This document shows, one piece after another, positions 521 through 57,871 of a DNA stretch of 64,000 nucleotides (its first letter is position 1; every line of letters starts with the position of its first letter). Source of the stretch: Schmidtea polychroa (lineage: Eukaryota); contig CM097885.1 of assembly GCA_044892525.1 (NCBI GenBank), forward strand, positions 166,470,001 through 166,534,000, given 5' to 3'. The translations under genes were made by a program, and so were the position numbers. A model generated the notes under the pieces. That model searched no databases. It was not told the origin of the DNA and worked only from the letters and a program-made list of their open reading frames with translations.

Positions 521-3339
521 TAGCGTGGGCTTCTTAAGCGATTCATCGACAGAATTAATTTCATTGACCCATGACTAAATTAAATATAAAAAATATAGCA
601 AATAACCGTTACATTCAACTTGAAAATCACTCATTATTTCTTCTTTAATCGAAGAATCTAATTGATTAATTGAAAGCATTTCAGTGGCTTTTCTTAAAAC
701 TCGGCTAAATATAAATTATTTATAGAATTTACAAACATTGTTATACCTATCAGGCGATAACTTTTGCAATCGCTTTTCACAAAAATCTTCTAAGTGAGGA
801 TATCTACCTTCTTCACCCGATCTGTTATTGTAATTTGAATTTTAAAACTAGTCAACAAAAGACATTAATGAATACTTAAGAGTTAAATAGATTTTTTCTA
901 GTTCCAACACATTGGTACACTTTTCAATATGGTCATAATCCAAATAACTGATTGGAATCTTAAACGTTTTAGAAAGACTGTCACAAGATTCCATCTGTTC
1001 GTTGCTATGAATACTTTTAAAACAAATGCGACTTTAAATTATAATAATCTAACTTATTGATGAATTAGAGTGAAAGAACAAATAATTAAATTAGAATTAA
1101 AGTGTAATTAAATTACATATAATTTTCATATTAATATTTGTAAGATCAAAATAATATAAAAGGTGTATGATAATTCGGCGCAACCGTTATCAAATACAAA
1201 CTTGATAAAGGCTGAGTCGATATATCGTGTACCTAATATATTATTTTGGTCTTACAAATTTTAATATGAAAATCATTAAATTAAAAATAGATTAAAGGTG
1301 AATACAAACGATAAATACATATATAATATATTATTTATAAATATATGAAAAATTGTCAAAGTAAAAATTAACATCAAAATTGACATACTTGAAAAAATAA
1401 TTTATATTAACAATAATTATTAAACAACAAAATATTTAAAATTTTTATGAAATAATTTTCAAAGACAAACACCCTTTTTCTATTGAAAATATCCTGAGAC
1501 CTTAAATTACCATGCTTTTTATTTGTTGGGCTAGAACTGATTTCTAGACCCAAACTTCTAATTGTGGCTGCAATGTGTAGGTACACAACATGCAAAAAGC
1601 AAAAAGTATAGTCAAATATTAAAAATACACCAAATAAACAATATTAACTAAAGAAGAAAGCAACAAAAAATAAACAAAGAAATTAAATAAAATTATACAA
1701 AAGCAAGAAGTTATGCAAAATAGAACTCAAAAATAACCAAATAAACACAGAGTTACAAAAAACAGACTCGAATAACTTAAAAAACGGTAAAAACAGTAAA
1801 AATTTCCAGAAAACCCAAAACATTCCATAAAAATGGCGAGGACCATCACAAAAGCCAGTTAGAACAATAAAAGTTAGAAAAATAACTAAACTAGTAATAA
1901 AAATAAAAATTCGAAAAAAGAAATTCATAAAACATCAGTTAAAATAAAAATAAAATTAAAATTAACATGGAATGTTCTGGAACCGTTCCAAATCCATCAT
2001 GGACGGCAAATTAACAAAAAAATAATTAAAAAATATAAAAATAAAAACAAAAATTATGGCATAAAAATTGCCATTAAAAATAGAAAAATCGCAAAATAGA
2101 AAATTCTGGAATAAAAAAGAATTCGAGTTTGTTTTAATGCATCAATACATACACGTGTACAAAATAGGTATATATACTGACACGTTTCAGCCACAAATCA
2201 TCATTATTTTATGCCAAAATTTTTTTTTGTCAACAAAATATCGATAATGAGTATTATTGCTTCATTTTATTGATTATTATTTTATTTTATTATTATGTAT
2301 CTATTGTTGACCCATCTATGTTAAACGATTAAAATGATTTATATTTTGATTTTGCTTAATTAATTTTTTTTGTGTGATGTACGAATGTTCAACGGCGTAC
2401 TGGTATTCCTGCGTCGTTGTTCAGTCCTGCATCCAATTTAGTAAAAATCTCATAGGGCATGTAAACCTGCATTATCTATATTATATTAATCCATATTATA
2501 CGGCTCTTTTTGTTCGGGTCAGCCGGAGGTCGAACTACTTCATGGTCCTGCCATGGAGTAAGGTCGAGGAAACCCTCCGCCTGACTCTTTGTATTTATCT
2601 AAGGTCAACCGTAAATGGTTGACTCAGCACACAACACTAAGGTTTGTGGAAGTGGTCACAGGGGGGCCATGGAAGCAATATTCTTCCCGACCTTTTACGT
2701 AACACATATTTAAATTCAACATTTAAAATCAGTACAACAAAAATACACTAAGGTCCTTAATTGAGTAGAACTCATACCTAAACTCACACAACTATACAAA
2801 TCACACGAATGTAGCTGGTTGATCAATAATAATATTTTTGGTACACTTGGACATATGCCGAATTGGGTTTGGTAATAGAATCTCATGGTAATTGGAATAT
2901 TAGAAACGGTAAAATTATTCGGCCTATGTCTAAGTAGAGCTTAAATCTGGATAGACCTGTGAATTAATCATCGACTTAATGGATCCAATGTAAGGGAAAA
3001 GGTTATAAATCTAAAAGAATTTCGAGTCTAAGTTCTCACTGTAAAATATTCATAAAGGTATAAATAATTAGTTATAACTTTTATCAATAATTATAATAGG
3101 TTAGAGATAATTATATTGACCTTAAAAAGTAAAACGTTGACGGATAAATCCCGATTAGGAGTTATAGAGTCAGAGTATAAAATTCTGTTTTATGACTAAG
3201 TCTATGTGAATGTGGAACTTCGGGAAATATAACTCATAGACAGTTACCAATAAACCTGAAAAATGTTATAAGACGATGTAGATCACATAAAAGTAATCTC
3301 ATAAAAGGTCATATAAAGCTGACTAAAGGATCGTAAATC

Positions 3340-4100
3340 GCAAGGTACCAAAACTATAAATTATAAAACGTAAGACTATAAGTAATAATCTAAAATCGTA
3401 GGTTACTGAACATAAAACTATAAACTATAAATTAAAAACCTAAATTTCTAAATTGTAGACTATAGAAGTGTAAAGCATAATTACAAAGTCTAAAATATCG
3501 AATATAATATTATAAGTTATAAAACTATAAATTAAAAACCTAAATTTCTAAATTGTAGACTATAAAAGTGTAAAGCATAATTATAAAGTCTAAAATATCG
3601 AATATAATATTATAAATCATAAACTATATAACTATGGATTAAAAATCTAAATTCCTAAATTGTAGATTATAAAAGGGTAAATCATAACTACAAAGTCTGA
3701 AATGTAAGATCGTAAAATGTTGAATATAAAATTATAACCTAAAAACTATATAACCATAAAGTAAAAATCGAAATTTCTAAAGGGTAGACTATAACTGTAT
3801 AAATCACAACCATCAAGTCTAAAATATAACATCCTAAGATATTGAATATAAAACTATAAACCATATAACCATAAATTAAGAATCCACCTTCCTAAATGGT
3901 AGACTATGAAACTATAAATCTGAAAATATAAAATTAGGAAATAGAAAATATAAAATTGTAAAATGTTAAATAAAAAAGTCATAAATTATAAAGCGGATAA
4001 CGAGAACTTATAAAGTATGAATTACTAAACTGTAAGGTATAAAATTGGAAATTGTAGAACGAAAACCTGCAAAGTGCAAAATGTAACATTCTAACTAGAA
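3340..4100 (+). repeat. Degenerate tandem array of about 100-125 bp units built from TATAAA-like subunits, inside the 5.25-kb element
   Basis: aaactataaattaaaaacctaaatttctaaattgtagactata recurs at about 3422 and 3522, with more diverged units at about 3630, 3755 and 3868. Confidence 0.8.
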
Positions 4101-4149
4101 TATGAATCTCTAAATTGTGAAAGACAAAATACGAATGGTAAAATATAAA

Positions 4150-4310
4150 GTTATATTATCACTATTATTATCATTATTATTATTATTATTGTTGTTATTA
4201 TCGTTGTCATTGTTGTTGTTATTATTATTGTTCTGATTACTATGCTTATTGTTCTCATTGTTGTTATTCTCATTATTATTATTATTATTACTATTATTAT
4301 TATTACCACT
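4150..4310. repeat. (TAT/TTG)n microsatellite
   Basis: Direct reading; it produces the spurious poly-Asn ORF 4110-4358 (-). Confidence 0.85.
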
Positions 4311-5259
4311 ACGATCACTTGTTATCCTTGTTACCACCATTTTTACTGTTATGATCATAATTAGTATTACTTACTAGGGAAGTAAAAATCAATTATTGAT
4401 TTTTTCTGATTCCCATATCTAGATTCGGAGTCAATTCTGTTGCCCAATAAAAACGTTCCTAACCTAAAAAATCTATATTTAGCAACACCCCCCCCCCCAG
4501 AGAAACATCAAGGAAAAATTCAAGACGGGGATACGACCATCAAGAGTTTCCAGGAGACGGTGAGAATGACTCCGGCGAACCATGCAAATGAATAAATAAG
4601 CCATAATTCGCAGAGATTTACTTATGTACAGAATACAAATATTCCCGGAAAATTTCCAAATTCTACGAGTGATAAATTGCGGGTCCAAATCAAATATTGG
4701 GCATGAAATGACATTCCCTGGGAAGGATTATGGGGAGACTGCTCCAAGCTAACCTATTCCCTCTTACTCGATCGAGGTTCATAATAATATCACCTAAAAA
4801 TTAAGGAATTAGGAAAATTAAATAAATTACTTGCTTGTAGATCGAACCACTCATAACGAGCACAACCGAAGGAAAGGTAAGCAGACGAAGAGCTTAGTTC
4901 ATTGCTAGTACCTGTCGCCCCAGCGTGCCCGAATTTAGTGGCCTAAAAATGACGATCTAAAAACCTCCCATTTTATTAAAATATAAATTAAAATTCATAA
5001 ATAGTAATTAAAATTACCACTTAGTGGTAAACAAAATTTTTGAATGTAAATGATTAATTTAAACAAACGAATTTTGACGAATTTTTTGGATAAAGTGAGA
5101 GATCTTATTCTACTGTTCCTAGGATTATAGATGCTAGTTTTAAAATAAATGGTTTTTCTTTAACTTTGAATTTTTAAAAGAGAAACGGGATCAACAAAAT
5201 CCCGTGTTTAACCTCGTAATACAATCTATATAAAGTGGCCTGATTGTTACTTTGTAGAA

Positions 5260-5625
5260 ATGTCCTACTCTGACAGCAGCAGCATCGAAGAAGACGATCG
5301 GCAGACGATCACCCGACTCCGTACCCGGTACATTTGGTACCACATCCATCGGTGGAGTCAGGGACGGGACCTGAATTGTGCAGATCGAGTGATCCGGCAA
5401 GGCCCCGAAGCAGATGCCCCGGCGTGGGTGAAGACGGAGCCGGAGAACAACCGGTTGCAGGAATCCCGCGATCAAGCGGCCTGGGACGTAGAAGCCGCTC
5501 AGATCCGGCTTAAGAAGATAGACTTGCAGATCAGGGCAGAAAGGGAGGGGGTGCCCCTAGAAGAGCTAAATGAAGCCGAGGTACCCTTGAGAAAGAGAGG
5601 GAGGCCCCGCAAGTATCAATTGTGA
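5260..5625 (+). CDS. Orphan 121-aa protein with C-terminal AT-hook (ORF A of the TG...CA element)
   Basis: Intact GC-rich ORF in AT-rich DNA, ending LRKRGRPRKYQL (AT-hook core RGRP). Acceptor-like tttgtag lies 2 nt before the ATG. Confidence 0.6.
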   Translation: MSYSDSSSIEEDDRQTITRLRTRYIWYHIHRWSQGRDLNCADRVIRQGPEADAPAWVKTEPENNRLQESRDQAAWDVEAAQIRLKKIDLQIRAEREGVPLEELNEAEVPLRKRGRPRKYQL

Positions 5626-5903
5626 TTAGGAGCCGACATTTGACTTACTTCAATAACTTCTTATCTAGTGGGTGTGGCTTAATTAATGATCAATTTTGAC
5701 TAATGTTATTGTTAAATAATAATCTCTTATTCATTGGGTGTCTTAATTAACAATTACAATTGACTGGGGTTTATTATCAAATGAAGTGTTTTCTTTTTAA
5801 ATTGAGTTGTAAGTAACAAGTATAACAATGTCCTAGCAACGCATTATTAGTATTGATTAATCAGTAAACTCTTTTAGCATGTGTAAAATTAATAACACCC
5901 TTT

Positions 5904-6383
5904 ATGTTTTCAGTGTATAAGTTAATGGAAAACTTGCGGAAGGATCGGGAGCAGGCCCAGCAACAAGCAGACGAACTCCGGACCCGAGTAGATAAGCTAA
6001 AAGGGAAATGTCGGGAGTTCGAGGGGACCTGGTTTAGCCCCGAGGCGATGAAAAGGAAAGCAACCCAGATTCTCCAGCTGCAGACACAAGCCACCCAGGA
6101 TCAAATGGAGATTCGCGCCCTAAAATTGCAGGTGCGGGCGCTCGAAACCGAACGGAATGAGCGGTTTGTGCAGGAATCCACAGCAAGGCAAATCCGGCCG
6201 CTGACCGTCGAGCTGGCAGCGATATATCCTCCGGCCGCTGAAAGCAAACCTAAACGAAAACGGCTAGGACGAAACATCCGTGAAAAATTAAAGAAGGCCA
6301 GGCTGGCCGAGCACGAAATGCAAGTGGACTCATCGCAAACGTCTACGACGGGACTAATTGGTCCCACTAATAAGCCGAGTTGA
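5904..6383 (+). CDS. Orphan coiled-coil protein with WFSP motif and basic NLS-like tail (ORF B)
   Basis: Intact GC-rich ORF containing LKGKCREFEGTWFSPEAMKRKATQILQL and KPKRKR. It is homologous by eye to 53462-54082. Acceptor ttttcag at 5907-5913; likely ATG at 5925. Confidence 0.65.
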   Translation: MFSVYKLMENLRKDREQAQQQADELRTRVDKLKGKCREFEGTWFSPEAMKRKATQILQLQTQATQDQMEIRALKLQVRALETERNERFVQESTARQIRPLTVELAAIYPPAAESKPKRKRLGRNIREKLKKARLAEHEMQVDSSQTSTTGLIGPTNKPS

Positions 6384-6916
6384 ACTGTTATTCCGTTTTT
6401 TGCAGTGTGTTTTATATATTTTTAGTATCAAAATAATATTTTTTATTGTTGTTACAATAATACATATTTTGTAGAGTTAAAATAATGTCTGGTATATTTA
6501 TGATTGCCTGGGAAATGAGAGTTTGTGCGTAAGGTTGGGAAAACAATTTTGATAAGGGACCTGAGGAAATCGGACACAAACCTTCTAACGGTAGTCCGTG
6601 AACCCATAGAGTACTCGACAATTATAGTGCCTTGATGCGCTCACTTTTTGCGAGTACTCAACCCCTTGGTACAGTACCAACGTTGATTACTCAACGGGTA
6701 CCAAGTGGAAACACATGTTGTATTTTGGGTTACGCTGGTAACAGCACTTTAACATCCGACCACCAGTAACCCACCATATTGAAGACCATCTTTTTCTATT
6801 GAAAATGTCATGAGACCTTAAATTACCATGCTTTTTTAATGATAATCGATTTTGTATTGAAAATTATTGGGCTTTTTTCTATAGGGCCTATCTATTTGTA
6901 TTGAAAAAAAACTTGT

Positions 6917-6967
6917 GAGCTCCCTGGAGCAGGGGGGCACCCCCCCCCCTTTTGCTCCAGGGAGCTC
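6917..6967. repeat. Perfect 15-bp-stem GC-rich hairpin, part of the small repeat into which the 5.25-kb element inserted
   Basis: gagctccctggagca ... tgctccagggagctc. Confidence 0.8.
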
Positions 6968-8668: not shown

Positions 8669-9215
8669 TTATAAACTAGCTTCAATAGTGTAAGTCTTTT
8701 TAACTGGCTTTTTATTCAATCTTTGAATAAAATTTCCTTTAGAGGTTGATGCTATAACTTTTTCTTTTTTAGTTTCTGATTTACCAGCTTCTTCTAATTC
8801 AAACTTGATTTCTTTTTGATGAGAACTAATTGCATTAAACAATTGCACAACACCCTTAGTAGCTAAACTAGCAAAGTATCTTTCTCGTTTTTTTTCTTGA
8901 ATAAAACCTTCATCTAAATCTATATCAAACTTATTCATTGATATTGAACCGTTAATTACTGAACGCCTACGCTTTCGACCACCAACAGCAAACAATGGTT
9001 TTTTATATGACTTAAAAATGTTGTATTATTTAAGTAAAATATTAAAAACTCACTTCGTTAAAAATCTTTGGATTTAGAGATTTACTGATTTGTTCATCAT
9101 TTGTATTTTCTGGGCTTTCCTCTGAAATGAGGCACATAATATGACCAGGTTTTCCATCTTTGCCTTTTAAATTAAGCAATTTTTGAAAAACTCGTTTTAA
9201 AGATTCATTTGACAT
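8669..9215 (-). CDS. RRP15: RRP15-like ribosome biogenesis protein (2 exons)
   Basis: Exon1 9215-9054 (54 codons, MSNESLKRVF...), 43-bp GT-AG intron 9053-9011, exon2 9010-8669 in frame. Contains the Rrp15 motif ERYFASLATKGVVQLFNAISSHQK. Confidence 0.85.
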
Positions 9216-9722
9216 TTTCAGAAATACCTAATATTTAAACAAGTTTTTGCCAATAACGTTTTTCAAATGTTTCACCAAATTGTAAAACTAAAATATTTAT
9301 TTAGTCATTTAAGACACATAAATTAATTTATACTTTTACAAAGTAATTTATGTCTTAAATTTTTAAAAAATTAAAAATTTCGATATTTGTTAAATAACGA
9401 GTTTCAAATAATTTAGTTTATAATTAATTTATCTCATTTTTAGTGGCGAAAAGTAAGAAATAGTCTATAATTTGATCGAATGAAATATATAACATAGTGT
9501 TTTAATATTTAATTACTATCACTTACCAATAGTTACTTATACAAACTCTTCAAATTTTCTTCAAAATGAAACTTCGAAAATTAAATAATGTAGTTTAGTA
9601 AACGTTATAGTAAAAATAATAATGTTTCAAAAATAAGATTATGTTTAAATTAAAATATTATAAATTTTAAAATATTAATTTAATAATGCTAGTGTAAGTA
9701 ATTTTTAATATTTGTAGTGATA

Positions 9723-36871: not shown

Positions 36872-39347
36872 AAATAAGCTCGAATCGATTAATTTTCCAG
36901 CATCATTCTTCCCTATCTTAGTAATGGGTTCGTTGGGATTCTTTTGAAGGGAATCATCAATTTTAACAGAATTAACTCCGACTGATTTTTGATGGACGGT
37001 TGAAAATGTGACATTTTCCAAAGATTGTTTATTCAATAAATTTGTTGCTTGAATTAAATTTGGATTAATATTTTTGTGGGGACACAAGGAATTCTAAATA
37101 AATTAAATATTTTATAGAATTATATCAATTATAGGATATTTTAATGCATTTTAAAGTATTTTAATGCATTTTAATGCATTTTATGAATCTTTTGAAAAGT
37201 ATCAAGATATAAGTATTATAATTAGAACTTAATTAAAACGCTCATTATTGCTAAGTAATGATTTTGTTGGGTATTTTGTAGTTGGCCGGTGATTATTAAA
37301 CTACCAATTACTGGTTTGACTCCGAGCGTGTTATTTAATGACGACAATGACAAATCCCAACGATGTAAAACTTTATTGATTATCACAATTGATTACAACG
37401 AATCCAACGATACCAATTGTCAATACACTTCATATGTTTCAGATGCTTATTACAACCCTCCAAGGAGGAATAGCACAATAATGATATACTCTAAGAACAC
37501 ATCCACTTTACTAATGCCGGTAACGGGTGATTCTCAAAATTGATCTGATTGGCTTTTGACTTGATTGGAATTCCTCAAATACTTCTGATTTATTAATCCA
37601 GTACGCAAATTTTCCTCTTGTCTCTCTTCCAACTGTTTCCCTTATTCTAATTAATTTATTTAAAATCTCCTAGCTCTTCCATCTCTCCTGGTCTGTGTCC
37701 AGTTTTTATACCTTGCCACCTAACGACACTTATTGATAATGCATTTATTTTTTACCTGCTCTATTGGTCACCCCGTAATCGCTGACACCTGTCGAGATAC
37801 ATATATTTTTTTGACGATACCAACTCTTGGATTCCCCATGTCCTTTCTTTTCTTTATCTCGAATAAGCTATCACGATAACAAGATAATTTTAACTTTGTT
37901 TTTCGTCTTTTGCACTTATACTTGTTGATTAAGAATGCCCTTCTTTTATTCAATTGTCTGCTTTAATAGATTTTCTTCTATTCCCTTCTCACTTTTTAAT
38001 ATCTCTTTTTCTCTCCTATTTCACTAATTCCAGAACAACCCATTCATTTATCATCATTTCCTCAATCATTTTACGCATTTAATAATTATAATGAGCTATT
38101 AGACGGTCTCATCGTAATCTATATAAATCTTGGCTATGCATATTTCGCCGATGTGATTCAATCATCATCAATGACTTTGAAAATGTGTCCTCCGTCGATT
38201 GTCACTTACTGCACCTCATTGGACTAAACGAACCTCAATAAAAATGTTTCCCCTTTTTCATATCGTCGCTGGACTCAAAGAGATAAACTGTCAAATGATA
38301 AACTGATATCGAACCTCTCTCAATTTAACCTCGATTATTTAAACTCTTACTGATAATGATATAATGATACATAAATTAAATGTCATATCTGTATTATTTC
38401 AAATGAATTTCTTTTTGTAAATATTATTATTAGTGGTGCTCTATCTATTATTTTATCTGGAAGCGGTTAAATGAACATGTAATTTTTTTAATGCAAATTA
38501 TGTAAAATTAATTATATAAAAAACTTCATTGGTTAAAAAACAGCTGAAAAATATAATAGATTTATTGATCGATAATTTAAAAAAAGAAAAAACTCGAAAG
38601 TGGCAAAGAGAAAAATATTTTGTAAAATGCACATCAAAATCCATGTTAGAAAATTCTTTGTAAAAAATTAATTTGAAATTGTAATTAAAACTTTGTTTGT
38701 TTATATAAGTTGTTTCGTAAATACTTTTTGGATTTTCAAATAAAAATTATAAAATTTTGAAATTTATAAATGTCGTTATTCAATGGTAATTTTTTCCTCA
38801 AAAATGTTAAAGCTGTTGATCAAAGTAAATTTGAATCGAATATTTTATCCAAAGTATACAATGGATCTGTACAACCATACAAAACCACCACAATAATTAT
38901 TTTTGTTATATTATTTAGCTAACCTCAACAATTTAATTATAATAAATAATAAGGATATTTTTTTATTATTTAAGTAAAGCCCTCTTAGGTTTCGACGATT
39001 TACCACTTGAGAACATTCTTAGATATCTCAGTGCCCTACAAAACTTGAACCTGATTTCAATTCCAACAACATGCGTGCAAATGAATTTCTTGAAACAAAC
39101 ACTGTGTAGTACACCAAACAGAGAAAGTACGGCGCTTGAACTAGTCAAAAGTAATCCATCACATTTTTCCGTATTTATCTATTTCATTTTGAGCAATAAC
39201 CTTTACATCAACAGCTGGAACATAGAAGCAAGTTGTATTTCTGCTGGAAATGAAATAATTGCCCATTCATAAGCTTGCATCCAATTTGAAAAATTAAGTC
39301 GTTTCACTGGAGTAAATTATTTATTGACATATTGTTTCCATTAAAAT

Positions 39348-48900: not shown

Positions 48901-51900
48901 TATTTTAGACGCCCATGTTCTAGGAGTACTGTTTTATTGGATTTTGAACATTAATAAGTCATCTTTTTGCTCTCCATTCCACTTGAATTCCATTGACAAT
49001 GTTAAATTTGTAATAAAAACATTAAAAATCAATAATACTTTTCAACAGAAATACAGGCTTTATTGTGTTTTATATATTTTTTATTTTATTGAAGGGAACT
49101 TTTATTCAAAATAAATTTCTTTAAAGATTAAAAAAAATTTTTGTAATGGTTTTTTGACATATTAAATAGAGACTAAAATTCTATTTTTAAAGCGCTCTTT
49201 ACTAGAGGTGCCCCGATGCCTTGCATCCACCGCTTCCAGCTATACAACGGTATACAACGGTATACCCAGTATACAACGGGTTTCGTGTAATAATGTCATC
49301 TATAATTGTAGTTAGTATACAGTGCGCGCTGTTTCACTTGGAGCTAACCAATATATCATTGTGCTGAAATTTCACAAAATTATCATATTACATAAAAACT
49401 GGAAAAGTAAGGGGAATATATTCAATAATTAGTGAAAAAATTGGTTTGTCCCAAGTGGAATGGAGACCAAAAAGATGACTTATTAATTTTTCAAATTTGC
49501 GTTTTAGAAAAAGATGAAACTATAAATTTCTGAATTTATTGCAATTCCAAGTTAAAATAATTTCAAATTTAAATTAATTTTTATCATTTTATTTCCTAGA
49601 TATTTACATTTTTACATCAGCTTGAGAATAATGATTGTCATATTATTTCCCAAAATTTCTTATATTTGTAAATTATAGACCGAACTAAATTTTTGACTAT
49701 TCCTAATAGCCATCCTAATTCCCATCATTTACGATCTTTTTTGCAAACCATCTTTGCAGACCAAACTAGAGTCCTCGAAATAAGATTCAAAATTTTCATC
49801 CACCAAATTTTTTTCAAATAATAATTATGATGTTTTGTCCTGAAATTTCAAGATAACGTACTTTGATGAAATGATGAAAGAAATTGAAAATTTATATGCA
49901 TTTATATTATGTTTTGTGTTTAATTCATTTTCTACCACTTTTTTATTTCTATTTTAATTCATGGATTGTGTTCCTATAATATAAGCTTATTGATTTTTTC
50001 ATATATTATGTGACTTTTATCCAGGCGTATAAATAATGTAGGAAAGTTGTTGTGACTGCNNNNNNNNNNNNNNNNNNNNNNNNNNNNNNNNNNNNNNNNN
50101 NNNNNNNNNNNNNNNNNNNNNNNNNNNNNNNNNNNNNNNNNNNNNNNNNNNNNNNNNNNNNNNNNNNNNNNNNNNNNNNNNNNNNNNNNNNNNNNNNNNN
50201 NNNNNNNNNNNNNNNNNNNNNNNNNNNNNNNNNNNNNNNNNNNNNNNNNNNNNNNNNNNNNNNNNNNNNNNNNNNNNNNNNNNNNNNNNNNNNNNNNNNN
50301 NNNNNNNNNNNNNNNNNNNNNNNNNNNNNGTCAATAAAACATTATTTATATTTAACATTGGATGTTTACACACGCACCAACAATGTGCCACTGGATATAA
50401 CTATTAATAATTTAATCGATATAATCTTACCTTTTTTCAAATTTGGAACCTGAGAATCATTAAAATTAAAAGTTTCACTGTTTTCAGACTTCCTCAACGA
50501 AAATCGAAGTTTTTTCGATAAAAAAGGTATTTTTGAATTTCCTAAAGATTTGTTAAGATTTTTTTGATTACTCATGGCATGAGTATGAGCCCAAAAACGT
50601 GAATATTGTTTTGTTACAGATAAAGTAGAATAGAAAAAGGAAAGTGAGGTTAAACTTGAGGCAAATAGAGAAAAGTATATCATTGAGAATACGAGAACAC
50701 ACCATTTGGATTCACCAATTCTGAAATTTAAAATACAAAATTATTTAACTATATAAAACCTTAATTCATCTCGCACAAATAATAATTGTTTAATAAGTCT
50801 CTAAATAATTAATATTTTAATTAAAATTATATAGGAATTAAGCAAAACTAAATTTAATCAAGCGTGTTGGAAATTATTATTTCCGATCTAGAATGTTAAA
50901 AAATAAAGCATGCGTTCTTTAACATGGCCTCCTTAATACTTCTGATGAATTTTTGGAACATTAAATATATAAAAGACTATATTCAATAAAGATCGATTAC
51001 TCGAAGTTACGAAAATTAGAATAAAATAATAAAATCAGTAAAATCATTCAATAAACGAGTAAAGAAAATAAATCCTGTACAATAAAAAGGGAGTGAATCA
51101 TCCAAGTGTGGAAAATAAATAATAAAAAGAGAAAATAACAAAAATAAGAAAGTAATTAGAACCAGAATATAGTAAAAACACGAATGCTAACAAATAAACG
51201 AGACAAATACACCACCATAAAACAAGCAGAAGAAAATAATTATGTAAAATAAAAATAAATAACAGGAGATTAAAAAAAATAAACAAGGAAATAAAATCTA
51301 ACATAAAAATTATAAATAAAAATGTGAAAAAAGTAAAAAACAGCGAATTACAAGCAGAACATCCAACAGAAATTAACAAAAATAAGAAAAAATATATAAA
51401 TCAAATGACTGAATAAATTAATAAAATAAAACAAATAAATAATCCAAGAAAAAACAGTTAAAAGTACCAAAAATTGAAAAAACATGGAAACACACACAAG
51501 CTAAATCCTGATTGGACGGAAAATTATATAAAAGGTAGACATTTGGATGATTCCCTTAACTTCTAAAAAATTCGTACAGGTAAAAAATTTTAAAATTATA
51601 TTGTAAACTTCTAAAAAATTCGTACAGGACGACTCGAGAACATTTTCAGAACTCATATTATGGAAAGCTATCAACAATTCGATAAATCTTTAGCAGGAAC
51701 TAATTTCAATCGATCTAAAAAATCTATTACTAAGAACCAATTTACGCAACTCCGAGAGAGCCACTGAGACTTTATTTGACAACAGATATAAAGAAGAAAA
51801 GTAAAAATTTGTATTTATTATCATTACAGTGGTCATAATTGTATATAATTTGTTATAACCTAATATTATATTAATCCAAGTGCTTGAAATTTTTCCCTTC

Positions 51901-54900
51901 ACGAATCCAGCGTCGATATCGCTTGGATGTCTGCGCGTGATCCCCGGGATGCCACGAAACGAAATTGATTATGCAAAGTGATTGAATGAAGAATCCAGAT
52001 GAGATTAACTGGTATCGCGAAAATCGCAACGAATGCTCGAGAATTCGATTTACCCAATGAAGGAAATGTAGTACTAAATGATATGTAGATGTGTTGAGTA
52101 TAATTGAGACTGAGGTGATCACATGTAGACAACAAGGGATATGGCCGCTGGGTAAGCTTTTTTATAACTTTGATAATTCGTATAGATTTATGTTAATATA
52201 TATTTGAACATTTTTATTGTTATGAGATGGGTTGACCCGTTTGTCACGGTCACCTGGGATAGTCGGTATTCGTACCGGTGGTCGTCAGGTATACCGTGAT
52301 AAGTGGCGAGACCAAGAGAGTTCGGACGAAAAAATAAGCGAAACTAAGGTCTGGTATCACCTTCGAGTGTTGGCAAACCGAGCGCATAAATCCATATAGA
52401 ATAGCGTGACAAACCGGATGTATCGAAATCAGAATACCTTCATGTCAGGATGCGTTAATAAGAATTTCCAAGTTCATACTCCATTTCAAAATTTCGATTA
52501 ATTGTTAACAAAATTCTCTGGCAATGATTTAGGACATTTCACGTCCTCCAGCCCACGATTTAACTCTCATTTCCTACATCATTTCTTGTCACATGCACCT
52601 ACATAGGTTTACTGATTCTTCTAATATTTGATCGTTCTATTGCACGAGAGCAAAGTTCGTCTAATTTCGACAAGTCTTAATCATAAATTCTACGATTGTT
52701 AAATTGCATACATATCGGAAAATTTCCCGACATTTCATCGTTTATCCTGTCATCTAAGAACCGTTCGCCCCGTTTGAATTTGTATATCATCCATCGTAAA
52801 TGAGTTGAACAGAGTTGAAGTCAATTTTCAGTAAACATCCTGCTAGTTGATAATATGCTCTCCGAAATTGTTTATTGTAAGTAACATCCGGTAATCACAA
52901 ATAGGCGAATTCACAGAATTTCTAATAGAACAGACCGGAACAGTGCATTGATATTAGACGATATATACAAATCTGCGGAAACCGTAGGTGAAACTTCCAA
53001 AAGTCTAACTCTTATTTATGATCAGCGACATAAAGATAAACAATCATTTAAAATGTTTACAATTTTCCTAGATTTTTCAAGTAATGAGGCATAATGTATC
53101 TTATCACATGGTTAATAAAAAGTATAAACCCGGTTGTAATATAATGAAAACGAGAGATGATTGAGATAAAATACATTCCTTCGGGTTGTCTGAATTAATT
53201 AACTAATATACTATAGGTTTTTCGATCCACCACACGCACCTGACGGGTTTGGCTTTTAGTTTTACACAATTTTATTGTCAAATTCACAATAGTAATTTTA
53301 TAATTTCTGACTAAAAATTATATTTCCAAAATTATTAATAACTCGTTCACTATGATTTGATCAAGTCCGGCCCATAGTAGACCCAATACCCATGATAAAT
53401 ATGAGTAATAAAGTAATAATAAAGTAATGAGTACCGTGAACGGGCTCGATAGTAACAAACATTGTTTCTCTCATTTTCAGTAATGTATTTATCCAATTCA
53501 GCCATGTCAGAACCAAACTTACCCCCGCGTGGACTGAAACCGTGTTTTTCATGTTCAGATAAAAATGCGGATATTAAAAAACTTCATAATCATATCGGGG
53601 TTCTTAAGAAACGAATCGAGCTCTTAGAGTATACGTGGTTCTCCCCGCCACAGATGAAAGAAGAAAAAATGAAAGTATTGCGATTGGAGCACTGTCGAGA
53701 AAGTCTCCTGGAGGAAAGCCGCTGCCAGCGGTTAACAATCAAGGCCCAATCGGAGGCCCTTCATCAAGTTTATACGGACGCAGAGCTTCATCGCCGAGTA
53801 AAGGAATACCCGATAAAGAACGGGGTGAATGTCTTTCCTATCCACCATTGTGCCGAGGAAATAAACGTACAAGTGTCGTCAAGTTGTATGGGGCATGGTC
53901 CGGAGTTGCCTCGAATAATCGAACCGGTATTAACTGGCGGGTCAAGTAATCTCCCCGCTTCTACCGTCGCTCGACCGGACTCACTTCCTGTCATTTCTTC
54001 AGGCTCTAAAGAAAATACCACCAATCCGCCAAAGAAACGAAAGCGGCCATCGAGAGCCGAACGTACATTAAAAAGGAGATAAGAAATGAAGGCATTAGAC
54101 GCTTCATTATTCGCCGCCCAACCCGCGACAAAACTCAACACTTTCCATGTGGTTTCTTCGTCAACACAAGTCAAACCGGAGTCAATAGTAAATCGACACT
54201 TCAAAAACTTTCTCTCCATTAATATACGAAGACCTACATCCTTCAATAGTTTCTTGGTCGCGTGTCCAATTTCTGATTTCTTAAAAGTTGAACTGTTTTG
54301 TAATTTGTGTACATAATAATAAAAGTTATTCTTAATTATTTCAACGATAAATTGCTCGAATATTTACTGGTGTTGATTGAGAATGTAGGTATGATTTGAC
54401 CATTGTTATGAAATTGTGAAATATGAATGCCGTCTAATTGGACCAGAGACGTAGATGATTTTTAAGGGGTAAAACCTTCTATCGGCACCCAGGAATCCGC
54501 ACTGTGAATATTGTGGAGAGTAGTCTTAACATCAAGGCTCACCTGTCCACAGGTTTCCCCTGCGTATACAGTTCCAACATGAACCATCTTAATGGGTATA
54601 CGTATGGGAGTCAATTCGTAAATCATAATGGGTGCTTAGGGAAATAATCTGAGCATACAAACATCTCCCATCCTAAGTACCCAGCACGATCTAGAATGTT
54701 AAAAAAATAAAGCATGCGTTCTTTAACATGGCCTCCTTAATACTTCTGATGAATTTTTGGAATATTAAATATATAAAAGACTATATTCAATTAAAGACTA
54801 TATTTCGTAGGTTTAAAGTGTTATAATGGCCCGAAAGATTAAGCACCCCTTTTCTATTGTATAACATTTGCTTCAATGAATAAAGGTCGGAACTGAACAG

Positions 54901-57871
54901 GTAATAATTACCTGTTAGAAATTTTCTGAAACATTACAAGCATATGTGAATATATTTCACTTTTTACCACACACTGAGAAATAAACTATTCTTTATAAAG
55001 TTTGTTTAATCGAACAGGTTGATAATCATCATGTTCTTAAGAAATAAAAAACTTTAACATCTAAAGAAACCTAATTGGATATAGATTCGATTATAGCAAT
55101 TGCAAAATAAATTAATATGGAAACATATCAAATCTTAAGTATCATGTTGTCGGTTACTAAGACATTTAAAAAATCTATTCTATAAAATAGAAAATTGGTC
55201 ATAGGGTTTGCTCTTCAAATCGAATATTTCAAATCAGTATAAAACCAGTGTAGATTTGTTCAAAATGAAAATAAAAGATATTATTTAATATTTTAATTAT
55301 TTTAATATTTTAATATTTTAATATTATTTAATATTTTATTTAATATTTTAATATTTAATACTATTTAATATTTTCTATAATATCGGTACACGGATAATAA
55401 TCTAAGGTCGCCATCGGTACATACCTGACTAAAAATATATGATTATATTTTGGTATTCTATTTTAGATTTCAATGCATTCGGTTCTATCCATACCCATCC
55501 AAATGAAAAATGAGCACATAATTTTGAGTTAATTGTGCATTGGTTTAATTTCCTTACAATTAATAAAAATTGTCTTGTAAACATAAATTCTTTATAAAAT
55601 CGATTTTTACATAATTACTGGAATATAGATATTTGTGAATCAAACCCGATTCCCAATACTGTATAAGTGAAAGAGATATCACTATATAACTTTGAATGAA
55701 CATTTTCACAAAATAAACATTATTTAGCAAATATTACAGTGAGTTATAATTAATTCTTCCAATAGTAATATAAAATAAATTAAACATAAATAGAAAGTTT
55801 ATAATTTCCATTTATTTATTTGTGGAAATTAGTCATTGTAAGCTTTAATTATATTCTAGGGATTTGATTAGTCACCATTATAATTGTTTCTCGAAATAAT
55901 AATATTAGATAATCTCCATTGTTTTGTATGGTGTGGCAATGAACACCAGTAATGGACTATTAAGCTATGATTAATTTACCTGGTGGTGACTAAAAATGAT
56001 TTGAAATACATTGAATAAAAAATATTATGTAATTAAATTTCTATAATACAGGGTTTTTCAATTGAAATCAGATTTCTTTCAAATGAATTCAGAATTTTTT
56101 CAAATGAAATCAGAATTTTTTCAAATGAAATCAGAATTTTTTCAAATGAAATCAGAATTTTTTCAAATGAAATCAGAATTTTTTCAATTGAAGTCAGAAT
56201 TTCTTTAATAGAAATCAGAACTGTTTTAAATTGAATTCAGAATTTTTATGGGTAATAAAATATTATATACACTTTAAATGAAATCATGATAGAGTAAAAA
56301 TTGGTAGTTAAAACTTTTATTCAGAATTCTTCTCTTCTTACCACCTTTATGCAAACCTTCTCGTGTCGTTGAAAAATCCGATACAATCCTCCGTGGTTAT
56401 CGAATTGTGTCCCATTTCAATAGCGTTTTTCAACTCGATTGCATTTAGAACGTTAGCCGATTTGACAATTGATTTCCATTTCGAGAAACACTCTTCAATC
56501 GGATTTAATTGCGGCGAATAAGGTGGTAAAAAGCGTAACGTAAATCCAGAATTGTACCTATCGATATTCCTTTCGATCGTAGATTTCCTATAAATTGGGA
56601 GACAAAATTTGTAAACTTCTCTGCATTGTATCCACCTTCTATAACTTCAAAATTCAAAATCTACATTTTGCTGATTGCTGCGCACACTGAATAGTTTTTA
56701 CTTCGTATACTTCTCACTTCTTTGTGAGCAGGCGACCCTACTTCGCTTCGTCCATATCCCAATCTCATCGAGCAATTGAAACCGCTTTCATCAAGGAAAA
56801 AGACATGGTCCTCGTTTAATGCCAAATATTCATTGGCATACTCATACCTGCGCTCAATAGCTTCCGCAGTGTTGCGGGCAGCGGGAATTAAGGCTACTCG
56901 TTTAAAAGAGAAATTAAAGTCTTTGATTGACCTATGAATTGTCGCCAACGATACGTTAACATTCATAGACTCACTCAAACTTCTTTTCATACCTCTCAAC
57001 GGAGTAGAACAATCATCGGAAATTTTTTCTTTTAGAAAAACTAAATGCTCTTCGCTCAATTTTTTGGACTTGCACCCTTTATCTTACATTTCATCAATCC
57101 TTCCTGTCGTCTTGTAAATGCTAATAATACTATAAACAGTTTTATAGTTCATAACGAGATCTGCAGCAATTTTTTTTACGCTTTGGCCGGAATCAAATTT
57201 GATACATATAAGTTTTCTCGCAGCATTGCTCAATTGTGATTTTTTTGTTGGAGGTGTCTTATGGTTCATTGATTTTGAAAAATATTAATATTTTATGGAT
57301 ATTATATATACATATTTGAATTTGATTTCGTTTAAAACAGTTCTGATTTCATTTGAAAAAAATTCTGATTTCATTTGAAAAAATTCTGATTTCATTTGAA
57401 AAAATTCTGATTTCATTTGAAAAAATTCTGAATTCATTTGAAAAAAATCTGATTTCAATTGAAAAACCCTGTATTATTGAATTTTATAAAATTTTAAGTA
57501 GGAAAATTTGAATTATTAATAATAATAATAATAATAAAACAAAAAAATGATAATTTAAGCCTTTTGCTGCAAATAATGTATTTAATGAAAAAATTTTCGA
57601 CTACAAGATAGCCCTTGTCAATCTCTTGGAATTTAGCAATGTTCTTCCCCAAAATACCTTTTAACCTTTCTTTTATTTCCTCTCTTAATTCTCATTGGTT
57701 GTAAATATAATGAATTTTTTTGTTAAAAACTTTTAAAATTTTTATTTTTAATTTATTATATTTTTTTTTTAAAAAATAATAAAATAAAAAAAATATAATA
57801 AATTAAAAATAAAAATTTTACTATCATTTTATTGTTTTAAATAATAAATGCTGCTATCAAGAAATCATCAT

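Follow-up and report, generated by a model that had tools for sequence, protein, structure and literature searches.

A 5.3-kb candidate solo long terminal repeat with accessory genes in the planarian Schmidtea polychroa

What kind of genetic unit has the ends of an integrase product, no enzyme of its own and two GC-rich open reading frames (ORFs) inside? The question is raised by a 5253-bp segment, element A, at positions 1524–6776 (plus strand) of a 64,000-nucleotide stretch of Schmidtea polychroa DNA (assembly GCA_044892525.1, contig CM097885.1, 166,470,001–166,534,000, forward strand). This whole stretch, to which all coordinates refer, is called the window below; it comes from an AT-rich, intron-containing genome and includes TTL and Rrp15 genes. 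The observations support a real family of mobile elements: its ends are of integrase type, it encodes no enzyme, and it has a protein-coding exon, ORF2 of element A (5925–6383), that is conserved. As a whole, the explanation we prefer, with a probability of roughly 0.6, is that element A is the solo long terminal repeat (LTR) of a large Gypsy/Metaviridae-type element and has a spliced accessory cassette in its U3 region. Taken by itself, the status of element A as an LTR appears probable.

Element A starts with TGTTGGGCTA at 1524 and closes with TAACCCACCA at 6776 (TGTTGGG...CCCACCA), and 6 of 7 nucleotides are matched in the inverted repeat formed by its ends. The left junction reads ...gctttttatt/TGTTGGGCTAGAAC and the right junction CAGTAACCCACCA/tattgaag, with one TATT at 1520–1523 and the other at 6777–6780 (both plus strand). 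The insertion site is a host tandem array with a period of 58–59 bp, in which the left TATT lies. Excision of element A together with 4 bp gives array spacings of 59/58, and excision with 5 bp gives 58/58. The spacing fits a clean insertion and leaves the length of the target-site duplication (TSD) at 4 or 5 bp; by sequence, just 4 bp match. The two flanks additionally have 47 bp in common at 96% identity, and a 60-bp TSD was set aside in preference for the host tandem array. Self-BLAST of element A found no terminal direct repeat within 1524–6776, and no Pfam family was matched at E ≤ 0.01 in any of the six frames, with stops read as X. The initial annotation had described TG...CA termini with a short imperfect inverted repeat and TATT on each side, an interior free of reverse transcriptase, integrase and transposase, and an ordered succession of A-biased tract, tandem array, exon-like segment (4841–4876), two intact GC-rich ORFs and structured 3' end; all of these are present as claimed. 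A GC-rich hairpin with G and C runs (6917–6967) borders the host array just to the right of element A and is probably the end of another repeat.

By itself, the end signature proves little, because the window has 421 pairs of TG...CA ends with a 4-bp repeat and a 7-nt inverted repeat (at most one mismatch) at 1–10 kb spacing, 21 of them with a G/C-rich inverted repeat. We take the signature as real because four relatives, elements B, C, D and E, share the window with element A. Element B (50865–54686, plus strand, ~3.8 kb) is diverged and extends from TGTTGGA, followed by a hairpin, to CCCAGCA, terminating in TACCCAGCA. It contains an A-rich tract and a candidate donor, GGTAAGC, at 52151/52152, and no Pfam family was found over six frames of 50993–54686. 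Element C (14625–14747, minus strand) is a broken ORF2 homologue that follows an A-rich tract and has an in-frame stop shortly before the W motif. It lies antisense in an intron of a TTL-family gene and is interrupted at a TA by what we take to be a mariner-like remnant (~13400–14470, minus strand). Element D (29560–30354, minus strand, lower limit approximate) is an A-rich 5' fragment starting with TGTTGGGCTAGAAC. Element E (32834–33330, minus strand, ~497 bp) has the 5' end and the 3' motifs of the family and no ORF; its 3' end is degenerate and was positioned by its register with B. Directly after this inferred 3' end (minus strand, 32834–32815) TGG is found, as in a primer-binding site. 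The stretch 32834–32815 also resembles degenerate telomeric repeats.

The 5' terminus of the family, which in element A includes a hairpin (1524–1553, plus strand), occurs at 4 loci with differing flanks. The first 14 nt of A are shared with D (from 30354, minus strand) and the first 9 with E (from 33330, minus strand), B has TGTTGG and the hairpin, and D and E align with a score of 112 against a shuffle maximum of 65.5 in 500. The A-rich tract that follows in element A (1580–2130, plus strand) is 57% A, compared with 58% in B and 57% in C. When 39 TGTTGG sites were scored by downstream A-skew, elements A, B, D and E took ranks 1, 2, 3 and 5, which gives independent support to their ends.

At the other terminus, the last ~400 nt of element A (6378–6776, plus strand) are conserved in B. 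Their global alignment scores 163, a value that no shuffle attained (500 for each of three block sizes), and this score ranks above the other windows (605 of 606), only A's own being higher; the best local alignment alone is marginal (19/500 shuffles). A profile built from the A and B 3' ends found one further match, element E, with an E-value of 7.6e-6. On this account E, at ~497 bp, has the two ends of the family but lacks an interior, and its size is ordinary for an LTR. The 3' end of A is structured, with a fold z of -2.4 and 3/200 shuffles equally good. It closes in a terminal hairpin (6726–6733/6766–6773), and between the stems of A (8 bp) and B (13 bp) three consecutive pairs differ on both sides, a covariation with n=2.

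These relatives bear directly on whether the boundaries of element A arose by chance around a host gene or unrelated debris. Such a reading can draw on the 421 chance-level signatures, on the longer flank repeat and on three other segments in the window with 111–205-bp flank duplications, which may be assembly joins. However, the termini, the 3' motifs and the ORF family recur at separate loci, and the GC content of ORF1 (0.57) and ORF2 (0.54) is far above that of three host coding stretches (0.29–0.40). We regard chance boundaries as highly improbable, and already largely refuted.

Inside the element, ORF2 (plus strand, 152 aa) scores 77 against the homologous ORF of B (53483–54082, plus strand, 23% identity in the family alignment), the best of 2000 shuffles reaching 58. 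With the broken homologue in C, the window has three copies. A profile of A, B and the C fragment gave 15 matches at E ≤ 0.001 among 1.84 billion representatives. The ORF2 domain is shared by 13 of them; the remaining two, P0008 (OmpH) and P0013 (WD40), were rejected as false, since both lack the motif and their scores are 34 and 14 bits, where the others reach at least 97. A second search, directed at longer proteins (8000 candidates scored, 337–2000 aa), gave 9 matches, 4 of them new, bringing the database proteins with this domain to 17. A profile made from the 13 database rows only recovers B (1e-23), A (3.5e-21) and C (5e-7) in the window, the next match having an E-value of 2.1. Element C is thereby clear, whereas with the two-sequence profile it was marginal (14.8 bits, 1/30 shuffles higher). 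W36 and P39 are invariant across 16 ORF2 rows, and a tree of 15 of these 16 (C omitted) separates an A-type group of 4 from a B-type group of 11 (100/99). A single-sequence search with ORF2 (37 candidates) gave no match at E ≤ 0.1, nor did the ESM Atlas, an exact look-up of four proteins, PHROGs or NCBIfam give any. The database records are unnamed, the 9 from the longer-protein search being labelled 'metaclust'. Judged by these comparisons, ORF2 is a conserved, so far unnamed protein family.

In 13 of the 17 database proteins the ORF2 domain is joined to unrelated host domains, namely SNF transporter, L21, CRAL-TRIO, GDC-P, subtilase, calponin homology, tyrosine phosphatase, actin, ABC, MCM6, sybindin, M1 peptidase and ankyrin. 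P0006, P0009 and P0017 enter the domain via identical residues ahead of the Met, and a shared splice acceptor is therefore indicated. It is noted that 13 public gene models among the database proteins P0002–P0019 fuse the ORF2 exon to housekeeping genes. Such fusions, which in public protein sets involve MCM6, furin-like, parvin-like, phosphatase and other host gene models, are likely a systematic annotation artefact, the other possibility being real exon trapping.

The structural model of ORF2 (predicted local distance difference test, pLDDT, 86.5; predicted template-modelling score, pTM, 0.45) has a helix at 2–34, a kink at WFSP, a second helix at 39–100, a linker and a last helix at 116–141. 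The protein thus has a coiled coil with a kink that leads into an arginine-rich motif, and it may oligomerise. The basic motif in the last helix is RLGRNIREKLKK, and that of the database relative P0003 is RRRPNRNRRRRERRR. At the same position 7–11 K/R per 15 residues are found in 13 of 16 rows, the other three stopping short of the site; the motif of A is K/R-mixed, with 4 R of 15. A sequence search of the PDB with the ORF2 family alignment gave generic coiled coils only (best E 0.013). By analogy, a Rev/Rex-like role in RNA export can be proposed for ORF2, though only tentatively; the main alternative is a plain nuclear regulator or an anti-silencing protein.

ORF1 (5260–5625, plus strand, 121 aa) has an acidic N-terminus, helices and an AT-hook-like RKRGRPRK at its C-terminus, with a Pfam AT_hook match (E 0.009, 16.2 bits) under the cut-off of 17.4. 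Its single-sequence model is weak (pLDDT 68, pTM 0.32), and no relatives were found by a single-sequence search (15 candidates), in the ESM Atlas or by a profile scan of the window. A 57-codon piece in B (52226–52396) has a WYH motif in common with ORF1 and was rejected as a relative, ranking just 6th among the window ORFs. The initial annotation had inferred that a promoter and two proteins would come with every solo LTR. This was too strong, as conservation is seen for ORF2 only, ORF1 has no relative, element E (497 bp) has no ORF and B has no intact ORF1.

How might these ORFs be expressed? Upstream of them, on the plus strand, element A has a GC-richer block (2380–2700) with a candidate splice donor GGA/GTAAGG at 2557/2558, possibly a first exon or an internal promoter region, then a tandem array (3407–3920, period 100–122) and a degenerate (TAT)n microsatellite (4154–4305). 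Two candidate small exons follow, one at 4501–4559, identified by pattern only (acceptor after a C run, donor GTGAGA), and one at 4841–4876 with the donor G/GTAAGC. The window has GGTAAGC just twice, at this second small exon (4876) and at 52151 in B. On the two strands together, TTTTCAG is present at 32 sites, including 12 nt upstream of the ORF2 ATG in A (putative acceptor at 5913) and 3 nt upstream in B (putative acceptor at 53480); the putative acceptor of ORF1 is at 5257. Phase 1 is needed by all three acceptors tested (A ORF1, A ORF2 and B ORF2), and the small exons are open in phase 1.

One reading of this arrangement is that element A is an LTR whose transcription starts near 2.4–2.6 kb, upstream of the ORFs, so that each solo LTR would be a spliced gene in its own right. 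In line with it, the A-rich tract is followed by GC-rich blocks with strong donors, at 2558 in A and 52152 in B, and an AATAAA comes after the ORF of B. As the main promoter, however, such a start would presumably require either a ~4-kb R region or transcripts that read past the polyA site, and the 16-mer shared by A and B is insignificant. We consider this reading quite unlikely; an additional internal promoter in U3 is compatible with the explanation we prefer.

In that preferred explanation, integrase would have produced the TG...CA ends and the 4-bp duplication, and recombination between the paired LTRs of an integrated copy would have left element A behind. Its conserved last ~400 nt (6378–6776) are the candidate site of the main promoter and polyA region, R and U5, a layout suggested by their conservation. 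Because this stretch lies downstream of the ORFs, the ORFs probably belong to U3 and precede the main LTR promoter; most of the LTR would be an expanded U3 with a spliced accessory cassette. A solo LTR would then express them only via an internal promoter or host splicing. The phase-1 donors of the small exons may feed two alternative phase-1 acceptors, one ahead of ORF1 and one ahead of ORF2. ORF1 would be an AT-hook DNA-binding regulator, and ORF2 a nuclear RNA-binding oligomer translated from spliced mRNA. For introns to survive reverse transcription, the RNA that is copied must be unspliced, and a factor for its export or retention is needed; ORF2 could be this factor, keeping the intron-containing genomic RNA unspliced, exported and copied, so that the LTR retains its introns. 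A fuller version, in which an invertebrate Gypsy lineage has taken a control unit in the style of complex retroviruses into its LTR, in which this intron-containing cassette encodes an AT-hook transactivator and an unrelated, convergent Rev/Rex-like adaptor acting on the structured LTR end, and in which solo LTRs seed host-trapping exons, we think rather unlikely. Such an adaptor would secure its own inheritance, because the introns must survive reverse transcription.

Several observations weigh against the solo-LTR explanation. In the window no pol-linked copy was seen, and no primer-binding site or polypurine tract was established; gag or pol Pfam domains occur in 0/17 database relatives of ORF2, and no purine tract stands ahead of the 5' end in A, D or E. 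The TSD was scored in A and B only, and is TATT in A and missing in B. The right flank of B (54687–54797) is a 97% copy of 50884–50992, B's own 5' region without the first 19 nt of the element, possibly a head-to-tail junction or an assembly join. Element A has no canonical AATAAA downstream of ORF2, and B has one at 54318. A 16-nt match between A and B, considered as a promoter motif, was rejected as chance-level (36/300 shuffles). Splicing of A and B is a prediction from sequence, and the ORF2 fusions are probably the gene-prediction outcome of a mobile exon in many introns. As to the export role, Pfam REV matched 1 of 16 ORF2 members, below the cut-off (E 0.001). A ORF2 has no match to the pattern of a leucine-rich nuclear export signal, and the matches in 9 of 16 rows do not exceed shuffle level. 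No fold match was found at E ≤ 0.001 in BFVD or the PDB, and the basic motif could be a mere nuclear or nucleolar localisation signal.

The first of these points would be expected if element A, instead of being an LTR, were a complete non-autonomous cargo cassette. A Gypsy-type or Ginger-like integrase would mobilise such a cassette in trans through its att-like ends, and the cassette would have its own internal promoter and a protein that aids spread or silencing resistance. The range of member sizes, 0.5 to 5.3 kb, is like the deletion series of a DNA element, and the part of B's 5' end placed head-to-tail after B could reflect a circular intermediate. Against a cassette, the inverted repeats are just ~7 nt and the ends are otherwise unrelated, and the strong A-bias of one strand and the asymmetric conserved 3' block suit an LTR. 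In addition, a small Gypsy-like end in the window has the same closing motif TACCCAACA (unconfirmed, with no Pfam match). In Ginger DNA transposons the terminal inverted repeats are tens to hundreds of bp long; element A has ~7 nt and no Gypsy-like integrase gene, although a non-autonomous derivative would be compatible. Element A also has no internal LTR pair, and two LTRs around a non-coding interior, as in terminal-repeat retrotransposons in miniature (TRIM) or large retrotransposon derivatives (LARD), were not found in 1524–6776. We judge the cassette unlikely. A solo LTR is the simplest origin given the ends, the TSD, the lack of an enzyme, the A-bias, the asymmetric 3' block and the 0.5-kb member. 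The initial proposal, that the ends and 4-bp TSD mark a Gypsy product or solo LTR and that this is the LTR of a giant planarian retroelement, is partly supported. The termini are integrase-type and recur in A, B, D and E, and a solo LTR fits best; the 421 chance pairs and the missing TSD of B qualify the end signature, and none of the database relatives has a gag or pol domain.

Beyond the family, the window has a Rrp15-family gene (8669–9025, minus strand) divergent to the TTL-family gene (9702–24708, plus strand), which has large repeat-filled introns and is presumably TTLL5. At 37265–37453 (minus strand), a ~190-bp TGTAAT...TACCCAACA segment after a short purine run looks like a small Gypsy element's 3' LTR and closes with a motif similar to those of A and B; no Pfam match lies upstream. 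A 127-bp direct duplication (36612–36738/38518–38644, 98%) flanks a 1.8-kb segment, and one of 205 bp (54905–55108/58690–58891, 96%) flanks a 3.6-kb segment, both segments being possibly haplotype joins in the assembly. A Tc1-like element with long terminal inverted repeats of 21-bp repeats lies at 56034–57486, and its transposase frame (56661–57083) matches HTH_Tnp_Tc3_2 and DDE_3 below cut-off. What we take to be a broken hAT-like transposase (27900–29400, no Pfam match) adjoins the truncated end of D, and a T-rich stretch at 26900–27750 might be a continuation of D. In the whole window, no tRNA genes were found and no Rfam family reached the gathering score, with one chance-level snoRNA match in element A; a bacterial promoter scan was uninformative for this DNA.

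Among the closest known systems is Burro, with LTRs of ~5 kb. As described in the passages on it in PMC6431247, Burro is a planarian giant Gypsy element with an internal region of up to 25 kb, a total length of more than 30 kb and tandem repeats. Burro/GYPSM1, which has thousands of copies, is like element A in its implied multi-kb LTRs, tandem repeats and accessory ORFs; unlike in element A, its extra domains belong to the polyprotein of the internal region and to an ORF upstream, and those passages mention no LTR-internal ORFs or introns (PMC6431247). The passages on Burro or LTRs in PMC8532177, PMC11410931, PMC13238120, PMC13309565 and PMC6884822 give no LTR anatomy, and those of PMC13524379 and PMC6673714 have no bearing on it. 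This LTR may already be documented in the extended data or supplements of Grohme 2018 or under GYPSM1 in Repbase. Ogre and plant elements with additional ORFs are similar in their LTRs of 1.9–6.5 kb and extra ORFs of unknown function (PMC6431247; PMC7264820); the passages on them place these ORFs in the internal region, outside the LTR (PMC7264820). In the literature searched, which covered few subscription papers, no Gypsy LTR was described as having ORFs or introns within it. If the LTR reading is true, element A would be a retrotransposon LTR with spliced protein genes, and in the fuller version considered above the three ORF2 copies in 64 kb would be acceptor-led arginine-rich exons able to trap host transcripts or act in trans.

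Coding sequence in or overlapping U3, expressed via splicing or an internal promoter, is found in sag of mouse mammary tumour virus (MMTV), lentiviral nef and foamy virus bet/bel2, and resembles what is proposed for the ORFs of element A. Those are vertebrate retroviruses with one such ORF and LTRs below 2 kb, and no sequence similarity to them was found; in contrast, element A has two ORFs and predicted introns wholly within a 5-kb unit. Rex of human T-cell leukaemia virus, Rec of human endogenous retrovirus K and MMTV Rem are Rev-like small basic proteins from spliced mRNA. Rev of human immunodeficiency virus, in the part of PMC10309623 that treats it, is likewise a small basic protein with oligomerising helices and an arginine-rich motif, made from spliced mRNA, as is proposed for ORF2. 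ORF2 differs from this group in having no leucine-rich export signal or fold match, and the likeness is one of analogy, not homology. It would nonetheless be a small candidate protein for the question of how very long intron-containing retroelement RNAs exit the nucleus. A Gypsy precedent exists in Cer1 of C. elegans, which encodes a spliced nuclear protein, CERV, needed to export unspliced genomic RNA (PMC10309623). As described there, CERV has 517 aa, lies in the internal region, shares exons with gag and has G and M domains, whereas ORF2 has 152 aa, is predicted to be all-helical and lies inside the candidate LTR.

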